From: Corallococcus sp. Z5C101001
Lineage (GTDB): Bacteria > Myxococcota > Myxococcia > Myxococcales > Myxococcaceae
Length of the DNA stretch: 64,000 bases
Direction of reading: 5' to 3'
NCBI RefSeq assembly: GCF_007352635.1
Contig: NZ_VKLU01000005.1
Coordinates: 571,940-635,939 of the forward strand
A model generated the notes under the pieces. That model worked only from the letters and a program-made list of their open reading frames with translations, was not told the origin of the DNA and made no database searches. Shown here one piece after another: positions 62,887-63,509 of this stretch. Numbering within the stretch: the first letter of the stretch is position 1; every line of letters begins with the position of its first letter. The translations under genes were made by a program, and so were the position numbers.

Positions 62887-63201
62887 ATGGCATGGCGGAC
62901 GCTCACGAAGTCGGTTGGAATGGGGGTCGGCGCGGGATTGCTGCTGCTCGCGTGCGGGCCCGAAACAACGGCGCAGGACACGGCGCCAGCGGACTCGAAG
63001 ACAGACGACCGGGTGCACGCCATGGCGCCGCCCGACAGCTGTGACCCGTGGGAGGACCACGGCTGGTGTCTCGTTTCCGGCAGCAGGGTCACTTGCAACA
63101 ATGGCATCCAGATGTACGCGTATCACACCCCGGATGGCTGGTGCATCAACGCGGACGTCTGCAAGAACGCCGGTGGTCCCATCATCTGCCCGGAGTGGTG
63201 A
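62887..63201 (+). CDS. small Cys-rich lipoprotein, paralog A (hypothetical)
   Basis: ATG at 62887 follows GGAGACAAGG. Lipobox GAGLLLLAC. The mature ~80 aa has 6 Cys and the motif VHAMAPPDSCD...GWC...YAYHTPDGWCI..D.CKN.GGP.IC. Confidence 0.55.
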   Translation: MAWRTLTKSVGMGVGAGLLLLACGPETTAQDTAPADSKTDDRVHAMAPPDSCDPWEDHGWCLVSGSRVTCNNGIQMYAYHTPDGWCINADVCKNAGGPIICPEW

Positions 63202-63206
63202 TTCCC

Positions 63207-63509
63207 ATGCGCATCCAGACCTTCATGAAGACTGTCGCTGTTGTGTTTGGCACGGGGATGCTGCTCGCGGGGTGCGGGACGGATGCAACGCCCCTGGAGG
63301 AAACGTCGACACCCGACGACACGGTCCACGCCATGGCGCCGCCCACCAGCTGTGACCGGGAAGCCGACGTCGGCTGGTGCCGGATCACGGCCGACAAGGT
63401 CCGCTGCGCCAATGGCCGCTACATCTATGCCTATTCCACGCCAGACGGCTGGTGCATCCAGTACGACGCCTGCAAGAACAACGGCGGCCCGTACATCTGC
63501 GGTCTGTAG
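63207..63509 (+). CDS. small Cys-rich lipoprotein, paralog B (hypothetical)
   Basis: ATG at 63207 follows GGAGTGG, 5 nt after the paralog A stop. Lipobox TGMLLAGC. Same conserved Cys pattern as paralog A. Confidence 0.55.
   Translation: MRIQTFMKTVAVVFGTGMLLAGCGTDATPLEETSTPDDTVHAMAPPTSCDREADVGWCRITADKVRCANGRYIYAYSTPDGWCIQYDACKNNGGPYICGL

Follow-up and report, generated by a model that had tools for sequence, protein, structure and literature searches.

The genome of Corallococcus sp. Z5C101001 carries a tandem pair of open reading frames (ORFs), ORF1 and ORF2, for small lipoproteins with a disulfide-rich domain. The pair lies in a stretch of 64,000 nucleotides (nt) of contig NZ_VKLU01000005.1 (positions 571,940 to 635,939), here called the window. 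Judged from their sequences, ORF1 and ORF2 are real, constrained and paralogous genes. Their products are read here as stand-alone envelope lipoproteins bearing a tethered binding or inhibitor-like module, with a probability of roughly 0.55. They belong to a family of small lipoproteins that appears to be specific to Myxococcaceae and apparently undescribed, its members being named only “hypothetical protein” or “putative lipoprotein”. What emerges is a well-documented gene family and not a new system; its members are lineage-specific lipoproteins of the envelope, an ordinary kind of object whose novelty, at the level of the domain, is modest.

A first reading of the DNA, made from the sequence alone, had proposed two adjacent duplicates of about 100 amino acids (aa) separated by 5 nt, and this description stands. 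The genes, of 104 and 100 aa, share the plus strand with a 5-nt gap between them (63202-63206). Their products are 50% identical over 101 aa in BLASTP (E 3e-35), a value that argues for a true tandem duplication and not a chance resemblance. The reading frame is kept at the orthologous loci of several Corallococcus strains. Cysteines of the domain covary perfectly, and the ratio of nonsynonymous to synonymous substitution rates (dN/dS) of the domain is below 1, in keeping with real genes for proteins predicted to be secreted, lipid-anchored and disulfide-bonded. Further copies, which the sequence-only reading had suggested looking for, do not occur in the 64-kb window: ORF1 and ORF2 are the only ones.

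Architecture and family of the lipoproteins

Both ORFs open with a short basic n-region followed by a hydrophobic stretch and a lipobox (GLLLLA-C23 in ORF1, GMLLAG-C23 in ORF2). The lipobox claimed earlier thus holds, with LLA and LAG before the cysteine, and both proteins match the lipoprotein pattern [LVI][ASTVI][GAS]-C within the first ~15-35 residues. A lipobox is found in 53 of 55 distinct full-length family members. The products would be exported, cleaved and lipidated at Cys23, leaving mature proteins of 81 aa (ORF1) and 77 aa (ORF2), about 8 kDa each. In Myxococcus xanthus, Lys at position +2 marks inner-membrane lipoproteins and Ala at +7 marks matrix lipoproteins (PMC3222651). Gly occupies position +2 in 44 of 53 members and Lys in none, so the M. 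xanthus rule predicts that the family does not stay in the inner membrane. Lol-type sorting would place these lipoproteins in the outer membrane, a quite likely destination for the two products of the pair, in which +2 is Gly and not Lys.

In the mature protein, a flexible acidic tether (~20 residues) would link the lipid anchor to a β-rich domain of some 55 residues that three disulfides stabilise, among them one between the first and fourth cysteines. Across the family the tether is rich in Ala, Glu, Thr, Gly, Pro and Ser and almost without basic residues, and it spans 11-34 residues in all members but one. In that member, the type-1 copy of strain CA054B (L012 5001..5435; P0011), a Cys-rich insertion of about 40 aa extends the tether to 66 residues. 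The domain is C-terminal in family members. Beyond the lipobox it holds six cysteines with the same spacing in both paralogues, C-x8-C-x8-C-x15-C-x5-C-x8-C (C52, 61, 70, 86, 92 and 101 in ORF1; C49, 58, 67, 83, 89 and 98 in ORF2). The six conserved cysteines had been noticed from the sequence, together with a shared mature motif that is correct overall, two of its gap lengths being off by one. Conserved aromatic residues flank the invariant Cys and Gly, and the aromatic-rich positions include M-Y-A-Y, D-G-W and a Y/W site.

Four of the cysteine columns are invariant in all 53 distinct domain sequences. The columns of the first and fourth cysteines (C1 and C4) carry Cys at both places in 32 of the 53 and an aromatic pair (Tyr-Tyr or Tyr-Phe) in the other 21, with no mixed case. 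An extra pair of Cys columns behaves likewise, being jointly present in 8 sequences and jointly absent from 45. Because co-gain and co-loss are perfect, they point to a C1-C4 disulfide and to an oxidising, extracytoplasmic location. The pattern indicates bonds, as predictions, between C52 and C86 in ORF1 and between C49 and C83 in ORF2; the covariation speaks to C1-C4 only. In an AlphaFold2 model of the ORF2 domain (9 sequences) five short β-strands are predicted, with a predicted local distance difference test score (pLDDT) of 81. The core of the ORF1 domain (39 sequences) reaches a pLDDT of ~79-86, and the two models, built independently, show the same five-strand layout at equivalent positions. 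Fold searches against the PDB returned no structural neighbour and no knottin or defensin match.

How far does the family reach? Word-indexed searches covering 5.8 billion proteins gave nine relatives for ORF2 and three for ORF1. Every relative with a named organism comes from Corallococcus, and the rest are Logan or JGI entries. An exhaustive HMMER search with a Corallococcus domain profile against 1.84 billion representatives yielded 21 matches at E <= 1e-3, five of them large proteins matched in multiple stretches. Three of these five were read (P0012, P0017 and P0029) and are spurious, weak stretches of Cys-poor repeats having been summed; P0025 and P0026 likewise match in multiple stretches. 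A second profile search gave 34 matches. The small-protein matches of both searches are ~90-120 aa long and come from Myxococcus, Pyxidicoccus, Corallococcus, an unclassified Myxococcaceae isolate and soil metagenome contigs of unassigned taxon (GC 73%). Members in other genera score profile E-values of 1e-12 to 1e-22. The M. xanthus DK1622 member is ABF90818/Q1CZ23, annotated as “putative lipoprotein”, and a literature search found no paper naming it by either accession, nor any usable expression or proteome record for it.

The pair shows all the features by which the family domain is defined: a length of ~55 aa, four invariant Cys, the conserved G, M, I and G-P positions, and an acidic tether before it. 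No Pfam or NCBIfam model matches ORF1, ORF2 or the family profiles, and hmmscan of the two window proteins and 21 family members against Pfam-A, at E up to 1, found no inhibitor family. PDB sequence searches with single proteins or family profiles gave no significant match. No relative was found by tblastn of ORF1 against plasmid and phage collections, nor any match by a metagenome scan with the Corallococcus profile. A weak match to 4eo1 (E 0.14) had raised the TolA-binding N1 domain of phage g3p as a candidate, which was rejected on an hhalign comparison with M13 N1 and for want of a structural match. Together these searches outline a compact family restricted to one lineage, with ~50 distinct sequences; no model in Pfam or NCBIfam represents it, and it has no neighbour in the PDB.

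Evolution and genomic setting

The domain is constrained, yet far more relaxed than folD or the neighbouring ADP-ribosylglycohydrolase (ARH) gene. Its dN/dS is 0.12-0.47, against 0.01-0.05 for folD and 0.13 for ARH, and in comparisons of Corallococcus strains the lipoproteins share only 49-73% identity where FolD shares 98-99%. Nonsynonymous rates (dN) are 0.22-0.66 in signal peptide and tether versus 0.09-0.32 in the domain. Two paralogue types can be told apart by their signatures (type 1, C-N/F-N-G...C-P-E/Q; type 2, R-C-A-N/D-G...C-G-L). The order type 1 then type 2 recurs in the window and in strains EGB and CA054B, which dates the duplication before the separation of these lineages; the gene gap in CA054B is also 5 nt (L012 5435/5441). 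Type-2 orthologues are found in EGB, CA054B and C. aberystwythensis.

The history of the family would be one of birth and death, with tandem duplication, recombination between copies and decay. Some signal peptides look swapped between paralogues, as in EGB, where that of the second gene resembles that of window ORF1. On the Logan-assembly contig L013 a single hybrid gene (4001..4312) is ~90% identical to ORF1 in its 5' part and 84-98% identical to ORF2 in its 3' part, with the crossover at the conserved VHAMAPP codons. Such a junction of ORF1-like and ORF2-like halves points to unequal recombination that collapsed a tandem pair. Decay is seen in C. praedator, whose sole remnant is a type-1 copy without signal peptide and with one Cys lost, in the second copy of C. 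aberystwythensis, in which the lipobox Cys has become Gly, and in database entries P0008, P0013 and P0014, which are shortened or have lost Cys. In the M. stipitatus group there is one copy or, at another locus, three in tandem; a threefold tandem is carried by Myxococcus sp. K15C18031901.

The coordinates of the pair and its surroundings are collected in Table 1. Each ORF has its own Shine-Dalgarno-like GGAG, as proposed from the sequence, the second lying inside the 3' end of ORF1, and the two genes probably form one co-transcribed operon, to judge from their layout. The spacer upstream must hold the promoter of the pair; a sigma-70 consensus scan of this promoter region gave no match, the consensus being uninformative for a myxobacterium of 69% GC. 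Beyond ORF2, the region 63500-63570 folds with -40.2 kcal/mol (z = -4.45; none of 200 shuffles is as stable), and the GC-rich hairpin within it, which has no T-tract, is probably a bidirectional terminator.

Table 1. Features of the lipoprotein gene pair and its immediate surroundings, in window coordinates
Feature	Position	Strand	Remarks
ORF1, type-1 paralogue	62887..63201	+	ATG to TGA; 104 aa
ORF1 Shine-Dalgarno-like GGAG	62871-62874	+	8 nt before ATG
ORF1 signal peptide	62887-62952		aa 1-22
ORF1 lipobox Cys23	62953-62955		
ORF1 acidic Thr/Ala/Pro/Asp tether	62956-63018		aa 24-44
ORF1 disulfide domain (predicted)	63019-63198		aa 45-104
ORF2, type-2 paralogue	63207..63509	+	ATG to TAG; 100 aa; WP_143901388.1
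ORF2 Shine-Dalgarno-like GGAG	63192-63195	+	inside ORF1 3' end; 11 nt before ATG
ORF2 signal peptide	63207-63272		aa 1-22
ORF2 lipobox Cys23	63273-63275		
ORF2 tether	63276-63329		aa 24-41
ORF2 disulfide domain (predicted)	63330-63506		aa 42-100
ARH gene	61876..62808	-	PF03747, E 3.4e-70; 310-aa product
ARH-ORF1 divergent (head-to-head) spacer	62809-62886		78 bp
GC-rich hairpin	63518-63551		between convergent ORF2 and folD stops
folD	63563..	-	convergent with ORF2

The slightly lower local GC remarked on at first is borne out, at 62-66% in the pair against ~69-72% in the surroundings. GC at third codon positions (GC3) is 0.83-0.85, level with the ARH gene, and the dip lies in first positions (GC1), at 0.55-0.57 versus 0.67-0.75 in neighbouring genes. 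Since GC3 stays high, the dip mostly reflects a composition rich in Cys, Tyr, Asp, Asn and Thr and not a foreign origin, and horizontal transfer was rejected as its cause. Two antisense ORFs (62802..63107 and 63182..63412) are treated as spurious, because GC3 is high in the sense frames and lower in theirs. A 416-aa upstream extension of the ARH frame is treated likewise: counted from the start at 62808, which gives a 310-aa product, the Pfam match already sets in at residue 10. Around the pair, one-carbon metabolism genes are frequent (gcvT, metF and folD; window 57717..60060 and 63563..64000), with hom and a 140-aa membrane ORF between metF and the pair, and this embedding marks it as part of the core chromosome with no obvious island.

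The adjacent ARH gene had been identified correctly from the sequence; the pair had been called convergent with it, whereas it diverges from ARH across 78 bp and converges with folD. Ten different neighbourhoods of family members were inspected, and when the neighbouring genes of six were compared all-against-all by BLAST, none proved common to different genera. The Corallococcus layout runs hom, ARH (minus strand), variable genes, the lipoprotein gene or genes, sometimes more variable genes, and folD (minus strand). The variable genes are absent from the window and from C. silvisoli, where ARH adjoins the pair. In strain EGB the pair comes after an OmpA-domain gene and is followed by genes for a SUKH immunity protein and a lipoprotein of 158 aa. 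In CA054B an OmpA gene precedes the pair, an HNH_2 gene follows and ARH is absent within 5 kb upstream. On L013, genes for a 4HBT thioesterase, a GNAT acetyltransferase and an AsnC regulator separate ARH from the hybrid gene. ARH and the lipoproteins thus flank an insertion hotspot, and in the window ARH touches the pair only because no gene has been inserted there.

Outside Corallococcus the family members lie at unrelated loci, all of them without ARH. That of M. xanthus precedes a class-I tRNA-synthetase gene, that of M. stipitatus follows accC/accB, and those of Pyxidicoccus and M. qinghaiensis are found elsewhere again. With synteny broken across strains and genera, a functional link between ARH and the pair is unsupported, and their proximity in the window is a coincidence. 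The neighbouring genes called on the source contig, which the sequence-only reading had singled out as a place to look, include no ADP-ribosyltransferase; they are gcvT, metF, hom, a gene for a beta-lactamase-fold protein, folD and further housekeeping genes. The proposed connection with ADP-ribosylation can be dropped. ARH itself shows no signal peptide, its Pfam match starting as early as residue 10, and is most likely cytoplasmic. It most resembles Tri1, the ADP-ribosylarginine hydrolase that serves as an immunity protein of the type VI secretion system (T6SS), and DraG, at 133 bits, well short of the curated cut-off of 490. It lies at the rim of a strain-variable hotspot that harbours a SUKH immunity or an HNH nuclease gene in other Corallococcus, and ARH may itself be an orphan defence gene.

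Several further observations concern these loci. The M. xanthus member (L005-L007 6001..6282) lies 55 nt upstream of, and co-oriented with, the gene at 6337..10080, whose product is a 1247-aa class-I tRNA-synthetase with tRNA-synt_1 and DUF5915 domains, differing from the ileS annotated as MXAN_0358. On its other side is a divergent three-lipoprotein operon that includes a trypsin-like protease. This protease and the OmpA gene of two Corallococcus strains were considered as functional clues and set aside as lineage-specific. Beside the lipoprotein locus of C. aberystwythensis only an N-terminal fragment of folD is readable (L001 3438..3698, minus strand) and unrelated genes are inserted, so that either folD is disrupted or rearranged there or the assembly is at fault. 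Further small lipoprotein genes, rich in Cys but differing in sequence, occur close to family members in Myxococcus sp. K15C18031901 and C. aberystwythensis (L008 8378..8650; L001 1149..1568, minus strand). In the window, an unrelated ORF (60243..60566, plus strand) encodes 107 aa with a signal peptide (AFA before AE), a dense Cys cluster, GICSVCGPAPCCVILWTAWCGCPFGG, and no Pfam match on record. A 104-aa gene, likewise without Pfam match, occupies the equivalent position adjoining hom on L013 (639..953).

Candidate roles of the pair

Myxobacteria possess hundreds of lipoproteins, many of them exchanged by outer-membrane exchange and most without known function. For the pair, the domain would act as a membrane-tethered binding module that is encoded alone, a role for which the odds seem about even. 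The stand-alone character follows from the lack of an obligatory partner gene. A tethered binding module fits best with a rigid domain on a leash, a lone gene, repeated duplication, recombination and loss, and an evolution several-fold faster than that of the neighbours. What would be bound is more tentative still; the preferred guess, although the odds are against it, is a protective inhibitor or decoy directed at an envelope-acting enzyme or toxin. In myxobacteria, TraAB outer-membrane exchange carries lipoproteins of the outer membrane from cell to cell (PMC5562445), and as such cargo the products of the pair could be shared among kin.

Several points weigh against this interpretation. No similarity to a known inhibitor, immunity or binding family was found in Pfam, NCBIfam, PDB sequences or PDB folds. 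A dN/dS below 1 denotes constraint and not diversifying selection. The M. xanthus orthologue is single-copy and well conserved across strains, which suits a housekeeping role in the envelope no less than one in an arms race. Outer-membrane sorting relies on a statistical rule from a single species, and by that same rule Ala at +7, present in 3 of 53 members including ORF1, is tied to secretion into the matrix.

The farthest-reaching version of the idea is a long shot. It holds that the domain is a new, disulfide-stabilised fold confined to Myxococcaceae, serving on its lipid tether as a protective inhibitor or decoy that can be shared by outer-membrane exchange and that counters envelope-acting weapons of predation or kin discrimination, in arrays that diversify by duplication and inter-paralogue recombination. 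If true, it would amount to a layer of “public-good immunity” separate from SitA/SitI and from T6SS effector-immunity pairs. The family would gain in importance should its domain turn out to act as an inhibitor or as an immunity factor during predation or in kin conflict. At 8 kDa the domain suits nuclear magnetic resonance, disulfide mapping and pull-downs, which makes it a tractable target.

Alternatively, the lipoproteins may be orphan periplasmic immunity proteins that neutralise envelope toxins delivered by competitors through T6SS or outer-membrane exchange, the locus by folD being an “immunity island”. This is unlikely, although the variable hotspot between hom/ARH and folD, with its SUKH gene in EGB and HNH_2 gene in CA054B, the sub-threshold resemblance of ARH to Tri1, and lipoproteins that evolve fast, duplicate, recombine and decay would all suit it. 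On the other side, none of the ten neighbourhoods contains a toxin gene or a conserved partner, so that the polymorphic toxin/immunity module suggested by the sequence-only reading finds no counterpart in any context. Known immunity families are unmatched, dN/dS is below 1 throughout, and the M. xanthus copy is conserved and single at a housekeeping locus.

Somewhat less likely again is a structural, adhesive or glycan-binding role without protective function, in which an aromatic-rich surface would bind peptidoglycan, exopolysaccharide or another part of the envelope. The aromatic residues conserved around invariant Cys and Gly, a gene that stands alone without partners, the conservation of the M. 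xanthus copy and the OmpA-domain gene that adjoins the pair in two Corallococcus strains are compatible with it. Similarity to Pfam carbohydrate-binding modules or peptidoglycan-binding domains is lacking, however, repeated loss and decay in Corallococcus speak against an essential role, and the OmpA neighbour is missing from the window and from L013.

Small secreted toxins, or bacteriocin-like cystine-knot peptides acting on prey or non-kin, are improbable. Size, three predicted disulfides, a C1-C4 pairing compatible with knottin-type connectivity, predatory hosts and the exchange of outer-membrane lipoproteins between cells are in their favour, but no fold match to knottins or defensins was obtained and no context has an adjacent immunity gene; downstream of the pair, ORF2 is followed by the hairpin and convergent folD. 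The myxobacterial toxin SitA looks different: FLAG-tagged SitA1 is predicted at 62.6 kDa, SitA proteins act in the cytoplasm through nuclease or tRNase domains at their C terminus, and the cognate sitI lies directly downstream of sitA (PMC5562445). Least credible by far is a functional module with ARH, for instance in reversal of ADP-ribosylation: what speaks for it is the head-to-head adjacency in the window and C. silvisoli, which the insertions in EGB and L013 interrupt, which has no equivalent in CA054B or outside Corallococcus, and which would join a most likely cytoplasmic enzyme to lipoproteins predicted to be disulfide-bonded and extracytoplasmic, with no ADP-ribosyltransferase called nearby.

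Comparison with known systems

Differently to the pair, SitA of the SitBAI cassettes is set apart by its published description. Both are myxobacterial lipoproteins with an outer-membrane-type lipobox and strain variation, and a SUKH gene, SitI-like, lies near the EGB pair; but the mature products of the pair are of ~8 kDa, without Pfam or toxin domain and without a conserved partner.

The likeness to the inhibitor cystine knot (knottin) lies in six cysteines, a small all-β domain as modelled, and a predicted C1-C4 bond that would be the first of the series C1-C4, C2-C5, C3-C6. C1-C4 is the one bond of this series that the covariation supports, and it is dispensable across the family; the fold searches brought no knottin match.

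The MliC/PliC lysozyme inhibitors and the periplasmic immunity lipoproteins of T6SS are made as precursors of ~100 aa, lipid-anchored, extracytoplasmic and encoded by stand-alone genes. The pair resembles them in size, anchor, predicted location, stand-alone gene and a plausible protective logic; the resemblance is one of architecture only, and the pair has no sequence match in Pfam or NCBIfam and no fold match in the PDB.

The closest general counterparts are the Sec/SPII (signal peptidase II) outer-membrane lipoproteins of Myxococcus that travel as TraAB cargo. The mature domain of the pair belongs to no described family; the pair shares with these lipoproteins the signal peptide, a canonical lipobox and a +2 residue other than Lys.

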